Source: an uncultured Chloroflexia bacterium
GTDB lineage: Bacteria > Chloroflexota > Limnocylindria > Limnocylindrales > CSP1-4
Reading direction: 5' to 3'
Assembly (NCBI GenBank): GCA_963748625.1
Contig: CAVVJT010000002.1
Location: forward strand, 1-64,000
Length of the DNA stretch: 64,000 nucleotides
Shown here: in pieces, positions 5,775 through 15,451 of the stretch
Position numbering within the stretch: the first letter of the stretch is position 1
Layout of the letters: every line of letters starts with the position of its first letter
Made by a program: the position numbers and the translations under genes
The notes under the pieces: generated by a model
Seen by the model: only the letters and a program-made list of their open reading frames with translations
Database searches by the model: none
Told to the model about the DNA's origin: nothing

Positions 5775-5918
5775 GCGGGTGCTCGATCTCCTCTCCGCGG
5801 GCGCGCCTCCGGGCGCAGCCTCACGCGGGCGACAGTGTACCGACCGCGGGCGATCCTTCGCGAGGGACGGCGGCTATCGGTGCGGGAGTCGCCGCCCAGG
5901 CGCCGTGCGTGCTGCATG

Positions 5919-8067
5919 TCAGGCGTCGCGGACGGCCGGGACGACAAGGCCCGCAAGCCCCGCGGCCGCCGACAGGATGCCTGCCGCAAAGATCACCGGC
6001 TGCGGCCCGACCAGCGAGATCAGGACGCCGCCCAGGCCCATCGCCACCGACATTCCGCCGAACACCAGCGCGAACCGGAAGCTCACCACGCGACCCATGA
6101 GCTCGGGCGGGGTCCGCTCCTGGAACAACGTCTGGCTGGGGATGACGAAGGCCATGTTCGCGATGCCGCCGGCGAACATGATCAGCAGGACGAGCGGGAT
6201 GCTGTCCACGAGCCCCAGCGCCATCGCGCACAGGCCGAAGGCAGTGTACGCGGCGATGATCATCCGGCCCTTGCGGGCGCGGTTCGCGACCAGGCCCAGC
6301 GTGAAGCCGCCCACCAGGCTCCCGAGACCGATTGCCGTCTCCATGAACGCGTACGTGCCGCGATAGGCCTGGCCCGGGGCGTCGGTGATCTCCTTGGCCA
6401 GGATCAGGCTGGCCACCGTGAGGATTCCCAGGGAGAACTGGCCGGCCGTGCCCTGCAGCGTGTTCGCGAGCAGCACGGCCTCGTTGCGCAGGAAGGCCCA
6501 GCCGATGCGGAGATCCTCCACCACCGTGGCCGGGGCTTCGGGCGCCCCGTCCTCGTCCTCGTCGGCGCCGGGTGGCATGCGCATCGGCATCGAGGGGGCT
6601 GGCTGCACGAGCGGCCCGGGTCCGCCGGACGATCGGCGGCACCACGATCGTGGAGAGCAGCACGGCCGACGCGAGGTACGTGATCGCGTCGAACCAGAAG
6701 GCCAGCGCCAGCGACTGCGCCAGGAACACCACGAACAGGCCGGCAAGCGGGTAGAGGATGATGTCGGCGAGGGTCTCGGCCACCCACGTCGCGGAGTTGG
6801 CGGCCAGCAGGTCGTGCTGGTGGACGATCCGGGGCAGCACCGCCACGCGGGCGGGCCGGAAGAAGATCGACACCGTCGTGATCAGGAACACGAGCGGGTA
6901 GGCCAGCCAGACGTTGGTCATGATCGCCACCGGGATCAGCAGGACCAGGGCCGCCCGGAGGATGTCGGACACGACCAGGACCTGCTTCTGGTCCCAGCGG
7001 TCCACGAACGTGCCCGCGATCGGCGAGAAGAACAGGTTCGGGATCGTGCCCGCCAGGAACGTGAGCGCCACGGCCATCGGCGACGCCGTGATCTCGTAGA
7101 CGAAGGCCGCCAGCGCGACCTGGGTGATCCGGTCGCCGAAGAGGCTGATGACCTGGCCGATCCACAGGGCCGAGAACGAGCCGTTGGTCGCAAGCCTGAC
7201 GTACGGATGCTGGCGGGCCCGGAGCAGCCACGTGCGCTGGCGCTGGAGGACGGGTGCCGTGCCCCCGACCGGGATTGCGCCGGAGCCCGGTGCGGCCATC
7301 GCCATGGAACCGCCGCTCATCATCAGGGGCCGTTCCAGCGACACCGTCTCGTCGAAGGCCGCCGTGAGGCCGGTGCCCGAGCGGATCGAGATCCCGGGCG
7401 CGGCGGCGTCGGGCGCGTCCGGGCGGGGGAGAGCAATGGCTCCCGTGATCCCGCCACCGGCTCGGACGGTGCGGTCGTCGTCCTCGTTCTCGGCCCACTC
7501 GTCTCCCTTGGGCCCGCGGATCAGCGTCGCGAACAGGAAGAAGGCCAGCCCGGCGGTGAGGAAGATGTCGCCGATCGACGCCACGTTCTGCACGGGCCAG
7601 ATCGGGATGGGGATGATGTCGCCGAAGGCACCGAGCCGCAGCAGGAAGTCGACGGCGTTCGCGCTCTGCAGCGGCTGGTGCAGCACCGTGTTGATCTCGC
7701 CGGTCAGCCCCGAGGCGGCGTAGGCGGCCTCCCACACCGGCATCCGGCCCGCGTTCACCATGATCACGAGCGCGTTCATGGAGATGCCCACGAATGCGAG
7801 CGCCATGCCCGGGTACGTGCGGTTCGACCAGAGGACGTACAGGAGCATCCCGTACGCCAGCCCGAACAGCAGGATCCTCGGCAGCACCAGCGGCACCGCC
7901 GCCTCGATCGGTGCCACCAGCTGCAGCATCAGCTCCGTCCCGAAGCGGATGATCACCGCCAGGAACAGCAGGTTCAGGTGGCGCAGCCGGATCGAGGCGA
8001 GGTTCTCCAGCTTCCCGCCCAGCACGAGGCCGAGCACGAGGCCAGCGACGATCCCGCCGATCAGCAT
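5919..8067 (-). CDS. DUF5317-like membrane domain fused to an MFS transporter (frameshift near 6600)
   Basis: N-terminus GGKLENLASIRLR...NRTYPG...NALVIMVNAGRMPV...H...GDII...SIGDI, then a linker, then MFS motifs LWIGQVISLFGD and GTFVDRWDQK. The MFS C-terminal half is in ORF 5919..6746. Confidence 0.75.
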
Positions 8068-8104
8068 CGACCGGTCCCCTGGAGGGCCCCGAGGGCGTGG
8101 CCGC

Positions 8105-9595
8105 TCAGCGCGGGTCGGCGGCTGCGGGCGTCCCGGTGGCGCCGCCGGGCTCGGCCGGGGCCGGCGCGGTCTGCGTTGCGGGCGCGTGTGCCGCAACGGA
8201 CGCGGTGGTGCCGGGGGACGCGGGGGTGCCGGTGGATGCGGGGGTGCCGGGGGACGCGGGCCGGCTTGCATGCTGCGAGATGAGCGGGATCGGACGCGGC
8301 TGGACCGTGCGGCCGGGGTCGTTCACGTCCTCGGCCCAGCGGGTCTTCACGAACGCGTCCACCACCTTGGGGTCGAACTGGATCCCGGCGAACTTGCGCA
8401 GCTCCGCGACCGCCTGCTCGGCTGTGAGCGGCGTCATGCGGTACGGCCGCGCAGCGGTCATCGCCTCGAACGAGTCGGCCACGTGCAGAATCCGCGCGAG
8501 CGGCGGGATCTCGTCCCCGATGAGCCGGTCCGGGTAGCCCGAGCCGTTGTACCACTCGTGGTGGTGGCGGATGATCGGCAGCTCTGCGGAGAGCCGGCTG
8601 ACCTTCCCGATGATCTCGGCGCCCAGGACCGGGTGCGCGTTCATCATCATCCGCTCTTCCTTGTTGAGCTTCTCCTGCTTGAGCAGGACGTGATCGGGCA
8701 CGCCGATCTTGCCGACATCGTGGAGCAGGCCGCCCCACTCGAGCGCCTCAAGGTCCGCCTCGCCCAGGCGCATGATCCGCCCGATATCGCCCGAGATTTC
8801 CTTGACCCGCCACGAGTGGCGCCCGGTGAAGGGATCACGCCGGTCCACGGCGCCGGCAAGCGCGGTGATGGTCTCGGTGAACATCTCGCGCATCTCGGTG
8901 TAGTTCTGGTAGGCCAGGCGGACCATATAAAGCGGAATGCCGAACAAGGCCGCAGCCCACCATGCGACCGTCTCGTAGATGACCGCCATCAGCCATGCGA
9001 TCGGCGCTAGGCTGAGGTTGCTGGCCATCGTGCCGCGGGCCTCCGCAGCGAGGATAATCCGGGCATTCTGACCCGTGCGAAGGGCCACGGTTACTGCGGT
9101 CAGCCCGCCGTTCAGGGCCAGGAAGATGGCACCACCGACCATCGAGACGACCAGACCGATCGGATCGCTCGCCTCACGCCCCGGGACTCCAAGCGCCTGC
9201 ATCACCAGCCCTGCGATCACGACAGGTAGCACTACGCCCGCGTGGTTGGCCAGCGTGCCGTACCAAGGAACGCGACCGGTGATTTCGCGCACATCGAATG
9301 TGCCGAGAAGGCCCACCCATGCTCCCGCGGTCGGACCACCGAGAATGGTCGCTGCCATGACCGCAGCGACGGACACGGCAAAGTTGCCGCCGCGCGGCAT
9401 CTGGATTGGCATGGCACCCGCCACCAGCGACACCAGGGTCCAGAAGACAATGCCCGCCAGCACCGACCACTCGCCAAACACATCCGTGGCGAGAGCGATC
9501 GAGTTGGCGGGCGGAAACGTTGAGGTCGTGACGACGAGTGCAAGTGCACTCGCTGCCACGACCCCAGAAATGTAGAGCTTCAGGTTCCTCGGCAT
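8105..9595 (-). CDS. HD-GYP cyclic-dinucleotide phosphodiesterase with a multi-TM N-terminal sensor domain
   Basis: About 7-8 hydrophobic helices, then DPFTGRHS, LLHDVGKIG, HHHEWYNGSGYP, ADSFEAMT and RPYR. Confidence 0.9.
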   Translation of the reverse strand: MPRNLKLYISGVVAASALALVVTTSTFPPANSIALATDVFGEWSVLAGIVFWTLVSLVAGAMPIQMPRGGNFAVSVAAVMAATILGGPTAGAWVGLLGTFDVREITGRVPWYGTLANHAGVVLPVVIAGLVMQALGVPGREASDPIGLVVSMVGGAIFLALNGGLTAVTVALRTGQNARIILAAEARGTMASNLSLAPIAWLMAVIYETVAWWAAALFGIPLYMVRLAYQNYTEMREMFTETITALAGAVDRRDPFTGRHSWRVKEISGDIGRIMRLGEADLEALEWGGLLHDVGKIGVPDHVLLKQEKLNKEERMMMNAHPVLGAEIIGKVSRLSAELPIIRHHHEWYNGSGYPDRLIGDEIPPLARILHVADSFEAMTAARPYRMTPLTAEQAVAELRKFAGIQFDPKVVDAFVKTRWAEDVNDPGRTVQPRPIPLISQHASRPASPGTPASTGTPASPGTTASVAAHAPATQTAPAPAEPGGATGTPAAADPR

Positions 9596-9684
9596 CCGTC
9601 CTCAGTTCCCAGTGTGTACCGGGACTCTACCCGTTCCGCCTCCTCAGGGGAGCAACTAGAGTCTGAAGTCGGAGCAGCTGGCGC

Positions 9685-9774
9685 TTAGAAGCCCTTCAGC
9701 GATGCTCCCCCAGCCAGCGCCATAGCGGCGACTGCGCTGAGAGCGGCCAGGAGCCGCATGAGGCGATCCTTCAT
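9685..9774 (-). CDS. Small 29-aa putative signalling-peptide precursor MKDRLMRLLAALSAVAAMALAGGASLKGF
   Basis: Translated by hand. GGAGG lies 8 nt upstream of the ATG at 9774 and the TAA is at 9685-9687. Basic N-region, hydrophobic helix and short polar tail ending in an aromatic residue. Confidence 0.7.
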   Translation of the reverse strand: MKDRLMRLLAALSAVAAMALAGGASLKGF

Positions 9775-9798
9775 CGGTCGATCCTCCGCGATCCTGTC

Positions 9799-9831
9799 CT
9801 ACCAGCCCTTGTAGGCCTTGTCCGGTGCCAC
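9799..9831 (-). CDS. Putative 10-aa micro-ORF MAPDKAYKGW
   Basis: AGGAGGT lies 6 nt upstream of a GTG start. The peptide ends in KGW, similar to the KGF end of the downstream peptide. Confidence 0.35.
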   Translation of the reverse strand: MAPDKAYKGW

Positions 9832-9982
9832 GCTCGTACCTCCTCGCGGCCCCCGTGTCCTAAGAACACGGAAACCGACCTGACTCGAAAGTCGGTCGGT
9901 TGCACTACTCGCTCCACCTCCACCCTAAGTGCCCAATTCAGGTGGGGGCATCAGCGCGTCCGAGCGTTCATTGATGGTGCCC

Positions 9983-10003
9983 AAGTACTGAAGTACTAGT
10001 GCG
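9983..10003 (-). promoter_or_regulatory. Tandem AGTACT / CGCACTAGTACTT candidate operator
   Basis: The minus strand reads CGCACTAGTACTTCAGTACTT. Related copies lie at 45898, 51021 and 58380. Confidence 0.4.
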
Positions 10004-10112
10004 GGGCGAACAATAGGTACCGGCAACCGCACCGGTCAATACGCAACCCTACCTATGCCGTGCGGTATATGCCAGATGCCACCAAACTGCACACAAACGG
10101 GTCGCGCGTCCC

Positions 10113-13100
10113 CTAGATGTTCGCTGAATGAGGGGGAACGTCGACGCCCATCTCTTGTCGCATCTAGGCGGCAGTAGTGGGCGTACTGCTCGGCGGCTGC
10201 CGCCTGCCTGCCACTGCCTTGTAGGCACTCAGCAGCTCCAGTTCGATGGCGTCGGCAGACGGGTCGATCGCAAGCAGGTCATGTGCGATGCCGGATCGCA
10301 CGCTCGAGGTCCTCGCTCGTCGGCAGATGCGAATAGCGAGCCTCGCCGGCCGCGAGGACTGCTGCGTGCAGGTTCTCTCGATAGGTCGTCGACCAGTCCT
10401 CGTACGCGAAGTCCAGTGCGTAGTTCCCCTGGTAGATGACCGATCAGTTCCTCTGCGGCCCCGCTGGCGTCGCCATCCGTCCGGCGCAGTACTCGCCAGC
10501 AGCGGCGGCTGGCGCAGTCAACGATCGCCGGGTTGAGGCTCGACGACATCGCCGTCGAACAGGACGTAGCCGGCACTCATGCCTTCCTTGTAGTCAGGTT
10601 CAAACACCCGGCGAAGGGAGTAGATCGTCTGGTGCAGTGAGTTGCTGCCGGTGTCGGGACTCAGGTCCGGCCAGAGTGCCTCGAGCGCCTCGTCCTTGGT
10701 GGCTGCCATGTCCGGACGCGAGGACAGGAAGCACAGCAGGGCTAGGACCTTCCTCCGCAGCCGCGGCCTCAGGCTCGTCCTTCCCATGAACACGTCGACA
10801 GGCCCGAGATCGCGTAGGTAGACCGGCTGGGCAAGGCGCTGAGTAATTCGCAGAGCTGATGGCCGTAGCGCCTTCGTCGGTCCAGCCTGAGCTCGGAGAA
10901 AGGAGGCATCTTCCGCAAACCCGATTTCGGCGAGCAGTTCAGCTGCAGCCCTGGTGCCTTCGCTGCGACCACCAATATGAAGGCGGAGAGCCGTGCGCCA
11001 GCGAGCGGGACGGAGTCGCGCCTCCGCAAACGCGATCGCCCGTGCGCCAGGGGTGAGTCGGTCGAACGCGGAAGCAATCTCCTCTGCCACCAATGAGAGC
11101 CCGAAGAGGTCAGCTGGCCCGAGTCGCTCGACCTCATCGCCGAAGGGTGCGTTGCCGGCGATGCGGGCAAGAATGGCTGCAATCTGGCGCGCTGGCCTCG
11201 AGTTCTGCGCCTCGGCTAGACGCAGAAGCTCTCCCAGCTCAGCGTCGAGATCCGGCGCCTTCCGTGCCATCGCGACGCGTGTACGCAAGAGTTGGGCTCG
11301 AAGTCTGCCCGCCGCATCTGGGCTGCGGGTCTCACGGAGCCGGTTGCACATCGCGGAGGCAGTGTCGAGGTCCCCGCGGCGCATGGCGACAACACCGCGG
11401 ACAAGGCTGAACACACCCATGTAGCCACCCGCCAGTCGGTCCGGTTCAACCAGTGCGAGGTAGCTCTCCGCCTCTTCGAAGGAGCCGAAGTCACTGTGGA
11501 CCCGCGCTGCCTCAAGAGCCAGCTCATCGCGCGCGAGAGGAGAAGCTGCGGACCGCTCCTCGCTCAGTTGGGCGGCGGCCTCCTCCAGTCGGCCCAGTTG
11601 GGCGAGTGCGATACATCGGGTCGCCGTCGCCGCGACGCGTTCCACGGAATCGCTCGACCGCCCTCCGAGGACCATCTCGGCCCGTGCAGCTTCCTTCAGG
11701 GCGTTGTCGGCGTCGCCCAGCCACGCAAGCGTTGCAGCGAGATTGAGGCGCGAGATGCCAGCGTATCGCTGGAGCCCCTCACGTTCCTGTTGCGCAGCGA
11801 GGTCGCGGAGCACATCCACGACTCGGTCGAGATCGCCCTCTTCGCTAGCCTCCCAGACCGTGACGGTGGCCTGAGCCACAAGCCTCTGACTGCCGCTGAG
11901 GTCACACTCTAGGGCCAGGCGAGCCGTGCGCACGCCCTCATCCGCGAATCCACCAACACTTAGGATTGAGGCCAAGTTCAGTAGGGTGAGACCTCGCGCT
12001 GGTCCGTCCCCCGCGCTTTCAACGGCTTGCCGCGCTCGCGAGGTCGCCTTCTCTGCGCTGCCACGATCCAAGTCGATGCGCGAGCGAAGAACAAGTGCGA
12101 TCGGCCTTGCTGGGTCGCCGGCATCCGGATCAAGAAACGCAACCACGGGCTCGAACGTGCCTTCCGCCAGGATCGCGTCGATGGCGTTGTCGATGACTCT
12201 CGCTGCGGCCTGAGGCTCCTTCGCCTGAACGTAATGCCAAGCGGCGCGTCTCCAGTCGACCCCGGACAGGCCGTTACCGACTCGGATGTGGAGCGCGCGG
12301 ACTGCCTCAAGGCCGATCTCGGCCTCGAGACGGGCGACCAGGAACTCGCGGACCAGGGGATGGAACCGGTGGGGTGACTCGCGGTCCGGGCGGTTGAGCA
12401 GGCCGAGGCTCTCGCAGTGGCGGATCAAGGCGACGACGTCGTCCAGCGGGCGCTCGTCCACGAGCACGGCCGTCTCTGGATCGACCGCCGTCAGCACCGC
12501 AGCCCGGGTCAGGAAGTGCTGGAGCTCTGTGGGCAGGCCCGCGAGCACCTCCTCGGCCAGGAACTCGTAGAGGTCGCCGCCGCTGGCGCTCAGGTGTGCG
12601 ACAAGGGTCCTGGGATCCGGGCCGCCCTGCTCGTCGAGGCTGGTGCGGACGAGGGTGAGGAGCGCGGCCCAGCCTTCGGTGCGCGCGAACAGGTCGGCGA
12701 GGACGTCACCCGGGAGCGGCCGATGGTAGGCATCGCGGAAGAGGCGCTCGGTCTCGTCGCGGTCGAAGCACAGCGCCTCGCCGCTGAGGCTGTCCACACC
12801 GCCGCGGGCGCGAACCTTGCCCATCGGGAGGGAGGGAGCCGATCGCGACGAGAGCACCACCGAGAAGCCGGGCACGGCCCGGTCCAGGAGCGCCCGGACG
12901 ATCGGCTCGGTGTCCGGGCAGCCATCGACGGCGTGGTAGTCATCGATGATCAACGTGAACCCGGTGGCACTGCGGGCGCCGAACTCGGCCATCTCGCGAG
13001 AGATCGTGGCGATGAGGTCGTGGCGCGTCGGCCCGCCGGGTCCGAGTGACTGGAGCATGTCGAACGTTTCGGGCGCGAAGGTCGGGTCCACCTCACGACC

Positions 13101-13361
13101 GCCCGCGACCAGGTGGCGGATGAACACCAGCCAGTCACGGTCATCCCGTTCGAGGCGGTACCAGGAGGTCAGGCGGCGGGTGTGGGTGGCCCAATCGGCG
13201 AGCAGGGTCGTCTTGCCGAAGCCGGCCTCGGCCACGATGAGGGCCACACGACCCGCGGCAGCCCGGTCAAGCCACGCGGTCAGGCGCTCGCGTGACAGCA
13301 TGTCAGCCCGGAGCGGCGGGCAGTGGAGCTTGGCCGGCTGCACCGGCAGCGGATTGGTCAT
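10113..13361 (-). CDS. Large MalT-like ATPase/TPR transcriptional regulator with a C-terminal SARP (wHTH-BTAD) module; several frameshifts in the last ~450 bp
   Basis: AKLHCPPLR..SRERL, Walker A AEAGFGKTT, IIDDYH, TEGWAA and RFHPLVREFL, then LALLCFL..EALWPD..LHQTIYSLRR. BTAD fragments DFAYEDW, AEQYAHY and MRQEMGVDVPP occur in shifting frames. Confidence 0.75.
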
Positions 13362-13769
13362 GTAGGCGCCAAGCCCGGCAAGCAGCATCGATCCGGCCAT
13401 GCCCGGTCCGACCGCCACGAGCCCACTGCCGCGATCCGCCCCTAGCGACGCCGGAGCCGGCGGATCGTCCGCCGCGTGCATCTCCGCGCTGCTCGTGCGT
13501 GACGATACGGCAGGCGTGCCCGGATGCGAGGGGGCCGGATGGCCCGCGGGAGTGCCTTCGTCGTCTGCGCCGCGTGCCTGTTCCTGGGGCCTCGGCCGTG
13601 CAGGCGATGCCGCAGGCGGCACGGATGACAGCGCGGCCGGGCCGCGGGTGGATGCAGGGATGGAGCGACTGGGACTGGGCATGTCCGGCATCGTGCCGGG
13701 CGGCACTCAACGCGGACTTATGCGTCCGCCGAGCACCTGTGGACAAGGAGCGCGTTGGGTTCCTGGCGG

Positions 13770-13973
13770 TCAGCCCTCGTACTCGAACCCGATCTTGAGC
13801 TGGACCTGGTACTCGACGATCTCGCCGTCCTCGATCCGCGCGGTGGACTTCACGACCTCGACGCTCCGGATGTTCCGGACGGTCTTGCTCGCGGTGGCCA
13901 CCGCCTGTCGAGCCGCGTCGCTCCACGACCGGGGACTCGTCCCGACCATCTCCCGGATGATGATCACGCCCAC
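13770..13973 (-). CDS. Dodecin family flavin-binding protein
   Basis: EMVGTSPRSWSDAARQAV...EYQVQLKIGF. AGGAGG precedes the GTG. Confidence 0.85.
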   Translation of the reverse strand: MGVIIIREMVGTSPRSWSDAARQAVATASKTVRNIRSVEVVKSTARIEDGEIVEYQVQLKIGFEYEG

Positions 13974-14074
13974 TCCATTCCTCCTGCTGCTGTCCGCGCC
14001 AGCATAGGCCACCGAGGTGGTGGAGCAGGACGGTGGAGTCCGCGCGTGTCACCCCTGGGCGGAGGTCGCCCGGA

Positions 14075-14383
14075 TCAGCCCTCCGCCACCCGGGTCTGTT
14101 CGGCCCGCACCTTGTCGAAGCAGCTGCTGCAGTAGACGGGCCGGTCATTGCGCGGCTCGAATGGCACCATCGCCTGGTTCCCGCATCCGTTGCACACCGC
14201 CGCGTGGTACTCGCGGGCCCCACCCGGGGCGGATGTCCTGGAGCGCTTGGCGGCCGCGCGACACGAGGCGCAGCGCTGCGGTTCGTTGGCCAACCCCTTG
14301 CTCGCGAAGAACTCCTGTTCGCCCGACGAGAACACGAACGGGTCGCCGCAGTCGCGACATGTGAGCGTCCGGTCCTGGAACAC
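14075..14383 (-). CDS. Zinc-ribbon / CxxC-x17-CxxC domain protein
   Basis: DRTLTCRDCG..FVFSSGEQEFFASKG..EPQRCASCR...CNGCG..VPFEPR..RPVYCSSCF. Confidence 0.85.
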   Translation of the reverse strand: MFQDRTLTCRDCGDPFVFSSGEQEFFASKGLANEPQRCASCRAAAKRSRTSAPGGAREYHAAVCNGCGNQAMVPFEPRNDRPVYCSSCFDKVRAEQTRVAEG

Positions 14384-14554
14384 CCCTCTCAACCTCCCCA
14401 GCTGCCAGCACCGGCGGTGATGCGGCGCGGGCGGCCTCTGGACGGAGCGCTCAGGCACGGAACCACGAGGGTCGGTACTCACGGCGGACAATACGGCTCC
14501 GTGTCAAGACATCCGGGTGGGAACCGCCCGGGCCGGACCGGCGTCGAGAGGCCC

Positions 14555-15451
14555 ATGTCGAAGCGTCTGTTTCTCCCCACCGCGATCCTGATGACCGCCG
14601 CCACCATCGCCGCCTGCACGGGCGGAGGCGCCGCCACCAGCCAGCCATCCACGTCCCCGGCCGCGGAGCCGACGCCTGCTGCCACTCCGGAAGGCCTGGC
14701 CCATCCGACCGGCGCCACGGACATCATCCTCTCGTACGACCAGGCTGGCGGCTTCGTGCCCGTCGAGTGGCTCGCCGCGCATGTGCCGATCTTCACCCTC
14801 TACGGCGACGGCACGGTGGTGTTCGTCCAGACCACCGCGGAGTTCAAGCAGGGCGTGGTGGCGGTCAACCAGCCCCTCCGGACGGCGAAGCTCTCCGAGG
14901 AGCAGGTCCAGGACCTCCTCCTGTACGCACTGCAGGAGGGCGGCCTCGCGGTCGCCAAGGAGGAGTACTCGAACATGATGGTCGCGGACGCCCCCACGGC
15001 GGTGTTCACGATCAGCGCCGACAACGACACCAAGACCGTCTCCGCCTACGGGCTTGGCTTCGACAGCGAGCCCAGCGCCGACACGGCGGTCCTCAAGCAG
15101 CTTGCGGCCCTCGGCGAGCGCCTCGGCAACTTCGACCAGAACGGCACCATCGCGAGCAACGCCTACGAGGCGACTGCGTACCGGGCCGTCATCACCGAGC
15201 AGCAGGGCGGCGTCCAGGGCGTCCAGGTGACGGACTGGCCGTGGACCGACCTCACGGTCGCCGACTTCAACGTCCCCAACGACCCGAACCAGCTGCCCCA
15301 GGGCACGGCCATCATCACGCCCGAGCAGGCGGAGGCCCTCGGCGTGGAGGGCTACCAGAACGGCATCCCCGGCGGCATCTACGCCAAGGGCGACGACGGG
15401 AAGATCTACTCGATCGTCCTGCGCCCGCTGCTCCCGCACGAGACCGCGTAG
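14555..15451 (+). CDS. Hypothetical lipoprotein
   Basis: Signal peptide with lipobox IAAC, a Pro/Thr linker and a TLYGDG...VADAP motif. Confidence 0.65.
   Translation: MSKRLFLPTAILMTAATIAACTGGGAATSQPSTSPAAEPTPAATPEGLAHPTGATDIILSYDQAGGFVPVEWLAAHVPIFTLYGDGTVVFVQTTAEFKQGVVAVNQPLRTAKLSEEQVQDLLLYALQEGGLAVAKEEYSNMMVADAPTAVFTISADNDTKTVSAYGLGFDSEPSADTAVLKQLAALGERLGNFDQNGTIASNAYEATAYRAVITEQQGGVQGVQVTDWPWTDLTVADFNVPNDPNQLPQGTAIITPEQAEALGVEGYQNGIPGGIYAKGDDGKIYSIVLRPLLPHETA

Follow-up and report, generated by a model that had tools for sequence, protein, structure and literature searches.

We examined a 29-codon short open reading frame (sORF) on the minus strand of a 64,000-nucleotide stretch of DNA, hereafter the window (contig CAVVJT010000002.1, positions 1 to 64,000), from an uncultured bacterium of the class Limnocylindria, phylum Chloroflexota. 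The sORF lies between a riboswitch for cyclic di-GMP (c-di-GMP) and the gene for an HD-GYP c-di-GMP phosphodiesterase with a membrane-embedded MASE9 sensor. Its pattern of substitution indicates that the sORF is a genuine protein-coding small gene under purifying selection, and profile comparisons indicate that it founds an undescribed small-protein family that is class-wide, recognizable at the level of the phylum and tied to MASE9-HD-GYP. We propose, at roughly even odds (a probability of about 0.5), that its product is an exported or membrane-inserted peptide that is translationally coupled to the phosphodiesterase and acts on its membrane sensor.

An initial annotation of the window had described a 29-residue ORF with a GGAGG ribosome-binding site, about 90 nucleotides (nt) upstream of the HD-GYP gene. 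Our translation is identical; the coordinates fit the minus strand, which had been left unstated, the Shine-Dalgarno sequence lies 8 nt ahead of the ATG, and the gap between the sORF stop and the HD-GYP start is 89 nt (Table 1). Taken alone, the frame is no more than would be expected by chance, since short ORFs abound in GC-rich DNA, and 73 ORFs of at least 20 residues overlap the 6-kb stretch from 7000 to 13000; it is conservation that raises the sORF above this background. The frame is intact and 29 codons long at 14 of 16 congener loci (it is interrupted in L011), and exactly 29 codons long in 47 of the 50 loci that carry it in a wider set. No indel was found in the sORF of the 14 intact congener copies, where third positions hold most of the change, and the ratio of nonsynonymous to synonymous change (pN/pS) was 0.27 in frame compared to 1.09 and 2.84 in the two other frames over the same columns. 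The corresponding values for 47 distinct 29-codon sequences from at least 18 genera were 0.30 in frame and 1.19 and 2.99 out of frame. Purifying selection spans the whole length rather than the end only, and three or four synonymous codons are used in the main family (that of the host) at each of the conserved residues Ala21, Gly22, Gly23, Ala24 and Ser25. In-frame conservation among relatives and a synonymous bias of substitution were the two tests on which the initial annotation had staked its proposal, and the sORF passes both. The peptide does resemble the N-terminus of ordinary secreted proteins of the host genome, and frames of its size are plentiful, but an origin as a chance ORF, or as the leftover N-terminus of a lost secreted-protein gene, is hardly tenable in view of the in-frame conservation, the fixed length, the synonymous turnover and the class-wide synteny.

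The sORF had also been called unannotated, which is right in so far as it has no name and no Pfam or NCBIfam family was found for the peptide; the exact peptide is, however, already present in the public protein collection, in an unnamed cluster of 7 on 21 contigs. The ESM Atlas returned for a 32-residue relative only unnamed clusters of 29-32 residues, at 0.89-0.92, and no functional lead. That a family present in hundreds of Limnocylindria genomes has no name in Pfam or NCBIfam illustrates a blind spot for short ORFs in uncultured lineages.

The 80 best relatives of the HD-GYP protein came almost only from Chloroflexota, mostly from metagenome-assembled genomes of Limnocylindria/Limnocylindrales. 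A 501-nt leader query matched over nearly its full length, at 77-84% identity, in 12 of 24 sampled congeners; three further congeners gave partial matches, and 16 genomes of a sister family with small genomes gave none. Two peptide profiles were used, a narrow one from the main-family alignment and a broad, phylum-wide one; the tallies include unpublished genomes (G282 in the order sample searched with the narrow profile, and G469, G572, G598, G648 and G755 in the broad-profile and HD-GYP counts). The narrow profile matched 52 of the 70 genomes searched in the genus and 193 of the 358 sampled in the family, reached 31 of the 44 genera in the order sample, and matched 7 of 16 genomes in the second order of the class. 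Matches in the sister family, whose genomes are of 1 Mb, were confined to 4 of 42 genomes and were all marginal, and there were none in about 360 genomes from some 80 other families of the phylum. All six loci inspected in genera without a narrow-profile match nevertheless carried diverged sORF copies. With the broad profile, the sORF was found in 19/23, 13/16 (the second order) and 2/2 genomes of the three families of the class, in which HD-GYP was present in 23/23, 16/16 and 2/2, respectively; the last of these families has a 25-codon form of the sORF. Outside the class, 12 MASE9-HD-GYP loci were inspected, of which five have a look-alike sORF of 29-31 codons 49-195 nt upstream and one has a doubtful candidate. 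The sORF and the MASE9-HD-GYP gene are the sole pair that persists across the phylum.

The peptide begins with two to three Lys/Arg among its first 7 residues, continues with an uncharged stretch of 19-22 residues (about 13 of them hydrophobic) that is rich in Ala and Leu and leads into a small-residue segment ending in Gly-Ala, and closes with a 5-residue tail that carries a basic residue and a terminal aromatic one, the window copy ending in Lys-Gly-Phe. Variation consists of conservative hydrophobic swaps around a basic N-terminus that is kept, as in a membrane segment. The tail is almost constant among the 47 main-family sequences (Ser25 in 46, Leu26 in 42, Lys/Arg27 in 45, Gly28 and Phe29 in all 47), while in a 29-row phylum-wide alignment only Met1, Gly23 and Ala24 are invariant, the hydrophobic stretch before them being generic and the 5-6-residue tail lineage-specific. 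Read from these alignments, the peptide fits a predicted Sec signal peptide with a type I signal peptidase site, having an invariant Ala at -1, Gly at -2 and Gly, Ala, Ser or Val at -3, and three to four type I signal peptidase genes are present in the host genome. The same features would equally suit a short anchor oriented N-in/C-out with a basic-aromatic interfacial cap, and whether cleaved or retained, the tail would come to lie at the outer face.

The initial annotation had described a signal peptide followed by 6-7 residues, behind a lipobox lacking its Cys, with LAG-G as a mimic of LAG-C. The build of a signal peptide plus a short tail holds phylum-wide; the expected product would nevertheless be a 5-mer, since the invariant Gly-Ala fits positions -2 and -1 of a type I site. 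The lipobox fares worse. LspA is encoded in the host genome, yet all 47 main-family sequences have Gly at the supposed +1 position, and the 29-row alignment shows Gly, Ala, Ser or Val there. Cys appears in neither set, and on the same grounds we rejected a decayed lipoprotein signal.

Small membrane-protein regulators such as those of the pairs MgrB-PhoQ and SafA-PhoQ, together with KdpF, AcrZ and CydX, offer a likeness, being shorter than 50 residues, having one hydrophobic helix, often sharing the operon of their partner and having been missed by annotation. The sORF likewise encodes fewer than 50 residues with one hydrophobic segment and stands with a candidate target, but its hydrophobic stretch is short, Ala-rich and more like a signal peptide; we know of no HD-GYP or MASE9-type partner for a regulator of this kind. 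A complex prediction that paired the MASE9 part (HD-GYP residues 1-240) with the peptide, run without controls and with a chain below the 30-residue calibration size of the tool, scored 0.11 against a mark of 0.32, a value that we count neither for nor against binding.

Table 1. Features of the sORF locus in the window, in the order in which the minus strand is read.
Feature	Position	Strand	Basis or detail
STAND-type regulator (AAA_16, TPR, winged helix; BTAD in relatives)	10518..13706	minus	Pfam, synteny
Promoter-like -35/-10 pair	10010..10039	minus	1 site vs 0.3 expected in shuffles
Small 5' hairpin between -10 box and riboswitch	9983..10000	minus	Congener alignment, also second-order loci; by sequence reading
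c-di-GMP-II riboswitch aptamer	9886..9970	minus	Rfam RF01786, 65.0 bits vs gathering 53.5, E 9.4e-14, model 1-84
Predicted intrinsic terminator (10-bp hairpin, UUCG loop, U-rich tract)	9862..9900	minus	Sequence, folds, consensus fold
ORF1 (GTG start, 10 codons)	9799..9831	minus	AGGAGG at 9844..9839
sORF (29 codons + TAA)	9685..9774	minus	ATG at 9774, TAA 9687..9685; GGAGG 9787..9783
Structured spacer	9596..9684	minus	Per-sequence folding, duplex test
MASE9-HD-GYP c-di-GMP phosphodiesterase (496 aa)	8105..9595	minus	HD_5 6.3e-39; MASE9 26.0 bits vs cut-off 24.3
DUF5317 membrane protein gene	7560..8067 (end approximate)	minus	Pfam; within 816-aa ORF 5821..8271

The leader ahead of the sORF is itself conserved. 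The box just 5' of the promoter-like pair is almost invariant among congeners, the stems of the aptamer show compensatory changes across 20 relatives, and the pairs of the terminator stem are invariant in the consensus fold of the same number of relatives. The 5' arm of the terminator is the 3' strand of aptamer stem P1, so that a bound aptamer and the terminator would be mutually exclusive; from this we infer an ON switch, in which c-di-GMP permits read-through. A second covarying hairpin lies between the terminator and the Shine-Dalgarno sequence of ORF1. Within the genus, a match to RF01786 is found 111-172 nt upstream of 50 of 53 sORF matches, and the three without an upstream riboswitch include one sORF at the very start of a contig, so that its riboswitch would lie beyond the contig end, and one partial match only. 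The element conforms to RF01786 in that its aptamer exceeds the gathering score over the full model and a terminator overlaps P1; what sets it apart is that the regulated unit, in Limnocylindria, starts with two tiny ORFs and an enzyme that degrades c-di-GMP. Two further Rfam matches fell far short of their gathering scores and were treated as chance, namely PreQ1-III at 10457..10537 on the plus strand (21 bits where 63 are required) and isrA (18 bits where 51 are required).

By comparison of the loci, the module of riboswitch, ORF1, sORF, MASE9-HD-GYP and DUF5317 is common to two orders of Limnocylindria. Loci of the second order have the same arrangement on a different platform sequence, from the promoter and 5' hairpin through riboswitch, ORF1, sORF and HD-GYP to DUF5317, with an ORF1 of 8-9 codons ending in Lys-Gly-Trp and a sORF of 32-36 codons. 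Metatranscriptome contigs from four studies lie on the leader. Two near-identical ones, with 1 difference in 222 nt and 1 in 215 nt, span the stretch from the sORF over the spacer to the HD-GYP start, and another (3 differences in 150 nt) reaches from the terminator over ORF1 to the start of the sORF. The summed depth of one run was about 13,000-15,000 over the riboswitch, 100-180 over ORF1 and the sORF and 13 over the spacer, a profile compatible with premature termination, but there is one figure per contig, summed over relatives, and these values were not used as evidence.

ORF1 is 10 codons long in 45 loci. Its pN/pS over all codons is 0.96, which gives no signal of codon-level selection, and its coding status is argued from the retention of its frame, its fixed length and its residue classes: among 43 distinct main-family sequences, Pro3 occurs in 39 and Lys8 in all 43, the residue at position 9 is always Gly, Pro, Ser or Ala, and that at position 10 is Trp in 39 cases and Phe in 4. 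The stop codon of these 43 sequences is TAG in 36, TAA in 7 and TGA in none, while the long ORFs of the window end with TGA in 16 cases and TAG in 11; one genus does end ORF1 with TGA. Both ORFs of the leader end alike, with a basic residue, a small residue, an aromatic residue and the stop. The endings of ORF1 and the sORF are Lys-Gly-Trp and Lys-Gly-Phe in the main family, Arg-Pro-Trp and Arg-Pro-Phe at two of four loci of one main-family genus, and Lys-Gly-Trp with Lys-Gly-Trp or Arg-Gly-Trp in the second order. Four loci of one genus missed by the narrow profile have a sORF ending in Arg-Pro-Phe in three cases and an ORF1 ending in Arg-Pro-Trp or Arg-Val-Trp. The match is not strict, as some congeners combine an ORF1 ending in Lys-Pro-Trp or Lys-Ser-Trp with a sORF ending in Arg-Gly-Phe.

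A common ending of two ORFs in one leader would be explained most simply at the ribosome, for example by a pause at termination, or through a common cytoplasmic receptor. A bolder possibility, which we hold to be quite improbable, is that of twin peptides with one C-terminal motif that covaries between lineages, ORF1 acting inside and the sORF product being exported, in a c-di-GMP-gated circuit that would act on the MASE9-HD-GYP enzyme, on the STAND-TPR regulator encoded upstream or on both. If this were true, high c-di-GMP would turn on an inner and an outer copy of the same short ligand, and a nucleotide second messenger would be linked directly to cell-cell peptide signalling in Chloroflexota.

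The spacer between the sORF stop and the HD-GYP start is more structured than its composition would predict, with a mean minimum free energy of -43.4 kcal/mol compared to -36.1 kcal/mol in dinucleotide shuffles. The window around the HD-GYP Shine-Dalgarno sequence pairs, with P of at least 0.5, with the first ~30 nt past the sORF stop in 32 of 47 loci compared to 53 of 470 dinucleotide shuffles, and in 18 loci of other genera the helix begins within the sORF stop codon itself. The duplex of 5' and 3' segments in these 18 loci had a mean of -17.6 kcal/mol for cognate pairs and -12.9 kcal/mol for non-cognate pairs, and none of 5000 permutations reached the observed value; since cognate segments pair better than non-cognate ones, the two sides covary without shared sequence. 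RNAalifold, applied to spacer alignments made with MAFFT, returned no consensus structure, and the helix emerged from per-sequence folding and the duplex test only. The end of the sORF is thus placed, as in leader ORFs, where a ribosome would disrupt the structure masking the downstream start. Termination on the sORF requires the ribosome to open this helix, which suggests that translation of HD-GYP is coupled to that of the sORF. Translational coupling is common between subunits that work together and does not by itself demand a functional peptide. Within the spacer, a TAGAGT box (9621..9629 in the window) is conserved among relatives and reads TAGACT in the second order; in the main family it sits inside a hairpin whose stem shows compensatory changes by eye, and contigs from RNA libraries cross it. 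The box may act as the -10 element of an internal promoter, or it may belong to the hairpin.

The riboswitch, ORF1 and the stop-to-start helix had escaped the initial annotation, and together they suggest a cis-regulatory role beyond the release of a pheromone that it had proposed. Carried to its end, this gives a leader that works purely in cis: ORF1 and the sORF would be translated for their own sake, the common ending would slow termination, and the paused ribosome would melt the helix masking the next start, which could provide a second, translational checkpoint after the riboswitch. The shared ending and its parallel changes between lineages, the position of the sORF stop inside a covarying helix that reaches the HD-GYP start region, the fixed ORF length and the avoidance of TGA in ORF1 all favor such a leader, and SecM-secA, MifM-yidC2, ErmCL-ermC and the intergenic sORF of mgtA similarly set the end of a short leader ORF, with conserved C-terminal residues, against a helix that occludes the next start. 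We regard it as unlikely nonetheless, because the sORF evolves with the hydrophobic swaps and basic N-terminus of a membrane segment, which an arrest peptide would not need, because purifying selection extends over its whole length, and because its build is kept before HD-GYP in other classes where the spacers differ. The occurrence of TGA in one genus and the lack of codon-level selection on ORF1 also argue against it. Leader peptides of the SecM, MifM and ErmCL type are not known to work in trans, those that sense force are long enough for their signal segment to exit the ribosome, which the 29-mer is not, and the present locus has two such ORFs following a riboswitch.

A diffusible quorum-sensing pheromone, with the exported pentapeptide being sensed by the MASE9 domains of neighboring cells or re-imported to the TPR-containing STAND regulator, is the reading closest to the initial annotation, which had envisaged release of a Phr- or SHP-like peptide; the result would be a cassette akin to Rap-Phr, NprR-NprX or PlcR-PapR. 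In its favor, a 5-residue tail comes straight after the signal peptide and varies among distant lineages, and a conserved regulator with TPR and winged-helix/BTAD parts stands upstream, mirroring the order of receptor and then propeptide in RRNPP systems. This regulator, of ~1,050-1,150 residues (AAA_16, TPR, Trans_reg_C, BTAD), precedes the leader at 82 of the 123 main-family loci with enough flank and at 4 of 5 loci of the second order, the fifth having a fragment. By Pfam, however, it is a STAND ATPase with Trans_reg_C/BTAD and not a member of the RRNPP family, despite its TPR, and it was not beside the sORF in any of the six loci inspected beyond the two orders, of which one belongs to a third family of the class and five to other classes. 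The pair of sORF and HD-GYP persists at those six loci, but the genes upstream are unrelated and code for peptidases, for a LuxR-type protein and, at one locus, for three radical SAM proteins. No oligopeptide permease or processing protease was found linked to the sORF locus. Phr and SHP pheromone tails vary between strains, and the mature peptide of an RRNPP cassette usually diversifies for specificity between close lineages, while here the tail is nearly invariant over many genera of one family and differs only between distant ones.

Rap-Phr of Bacillus also has a small precursor with a Sec signal, five active C-terminal residues and co-transcription with the enzyme or regulator that is controlled, but Phr precursors have ~40-60 residues and include a pro-region, whereas here the tail directly follows the signal peptide; the partner is a membrane HD-GYP phosphodiesterase rather than a Rap protein, in Chloroflexota, with conservation of the tail over many genera and gating by a riboswitch. 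SHP peptides of Rgg and PrgQ/iCF10 of Enterococcus are likewise encoded by 20-35 codons, with a basic N-terminus, a hydrophobic stretch and an active C-terminal end; their mature part, however, is the hydrophobic stretch, freed by an intramembrane protease, in contrast to the polar basic-aromatic tail past a predicted type I site in the sORF, and no counterpart of their receptors Rgg and PrgX was seen at this locus. The near-invariance of the tail across the family and the failure to identify an RRNPP-type receptor speak against a Phr- or SHP-like pheromone. It is the shared ending of the two ORFs, together with the avoidance of TGA in ORF1, that leads us to keep the leader acting only in cis as an unlikely explanation and to place the pheromone lower, as a very improbable one.

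Under the reading that we prefer, that of a coupled peptide acting on the sensor of the phosphodiesterase, bound c-di-GMP would hold P1 and block the overlapping terminator, so that transcription could proceed. Ribosomes would next translate the 10 codons of ORF1 and the 29 of the sORF, and those terminating at the sORF stop would open the HD-GYP ribosome-binding site, coupling the output of the enzyme to that of the peptide. The peptide would most likely insert in the membrane N-in/C-out, after which type I signal peptidase might free the C-terminal pentapeptide at the outer face, or a one-helix anchor might display the tail. It would then act locally on the MASE9 sensor of the phosphodiesterase that is translated from the same transcript, perhaps together with DUF5317, and would thereby set the strength of the feedback that the c-di-GMP-induced enzyme exerts on c-di-GMP.

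To our knowledge, the control of membrane HD-GYP phosphodiesterases is largely uncharted and the MASE9 ligand has yet to be identified; a tiny peptide gene tied to MASE9-HD-GYP across a phylum would be a concrete candidate for the missing sensor input. The authors of the preprint that defines MASE9 suggest that ligand binding takes place within the membrane (bioRxiv 10.1101/2021.11.05.467447); this singles out the sensor domain of the co-translated enzyme as the obvious target. One enzyme would be subject to three layers of control, comprising a transcriptional riboswitch, two micro-ORFs and a stop-linked helix over the next start, and the fact that it degrades the ligand sensed by its own riboswitch makes for a feedback design that is both unusual and compact. 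Our literature search, which did not extend to subscription journals, turned up no publication that deals with the sORF, with DUF5317 or with c-di-GMP in Limnocylindria, and none describing an arrangement of riboswitch, two tiny ORFs and a c-di-GMP-degrading enzyme.

Several observations weigh against this reading. If the tail acts only outside the cell, it is awkward that ORF1, which has no export signal, shares the tail motif and tracks it between lineages. A chain of 29 residues is still inside the ribosome tunnel at termination, so any targeting would have to be post-translational. The last two sORF codons are fairly fixed at the nucleotide level (GGC in 40 of 47 and TTC in 47 of 47), and part of the constraint on them may therefore lie on the RNA or the ribosome. 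The helix has P=0 in three of four paralogous loci (L015, L017 and L054, with 0.57 in L014) and is also missing in L007, L008 and L013, and within the genus the cognate duplex barely differs from the cross-genus one (-13.1 and -12.2 kcal/mol). Of the 45 broad-profile matches at E<=1e-4, 39 are followed, 58-446 nt downstream, by a same-strand match to HD-GYP, but the out-of-class part of this count is circular, since six of those loci had been used to build the profile. No such sORF was found at 6 of the 12 MASE9-HD-GYP loci inspected outside the class. Finally, the metatranscriptome contigs give a hint of transcription through the terminator and across the spacer, but contigs of RNA libraries may contain DNA and do not prove a single transcript.

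The columns of the HD and GYP motifs are invariant in the alignment of the phosphodiesterase. Its frame is interrupted at nine loci (L007, L009, L041, L042, L044, L051, L070, L072 and L073), some of them in few-contig assemblies, and indel errors are one possible cause. DUF5317 follows HD-GYP in 102 of 123 loci. In the window it shares one frame, the 816-aa ORF at 5821..8271 of the minus strand, with an MFS_3/MFS_1 transporter region, which could reflect two genes or a fusion; the MFS part is likewise kept downstream in relatives.

Paralogous sORF copies within one genome each precede their own HD-GYP paralogue. At L171 (G261 C7) a partial tandem duplication has left a frameshifted sORF and a 226-aa fragment of MASE9 ahead of an intact sORF and a full HD-GYP gene. 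L182 (G508 C28) has two identical tandem 31-codon look-alikes of the sORF, flanked by HD-GYP on one side and on the other by a c-di-GMP-II match whose 52.7 bits fall just below the gathering score. L201, in another Chloroflexota class (G443 C319:1-4160), has three same-strand radical SAM genes, two with SPASM and one with a B12-binding domain, directly upstream of a look-alike sORF and HD-GYP; radical SAM maturases were considered as a general partner and rejected, as they are present in this one genome and in none of the other loci inspected.

The upstream regulator ends early in the window, at 10518, while in 13 congeners its frame extends ~390 nt further, takes in a BTAD-like part and stops 60-110 nt short of the promoter box. 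The frame is shifted here (10130..10530, minus strand) by a single-base difference near 10520-10530, which may represent a frameshift or an assembly error.

Elsewhere in the host genome we noted variant riboswitches of the same class, for which we know of no assigned ligand, comprising six c-di-GMP-II-GAG elements (59-76 bits) and one c-di-GMP-II-GCG element (55 bits) at loci L019-L025, all above their gathering scores. At least six of these seven stand immediately ahead of a gene for a protein that begins with a signal peptide.

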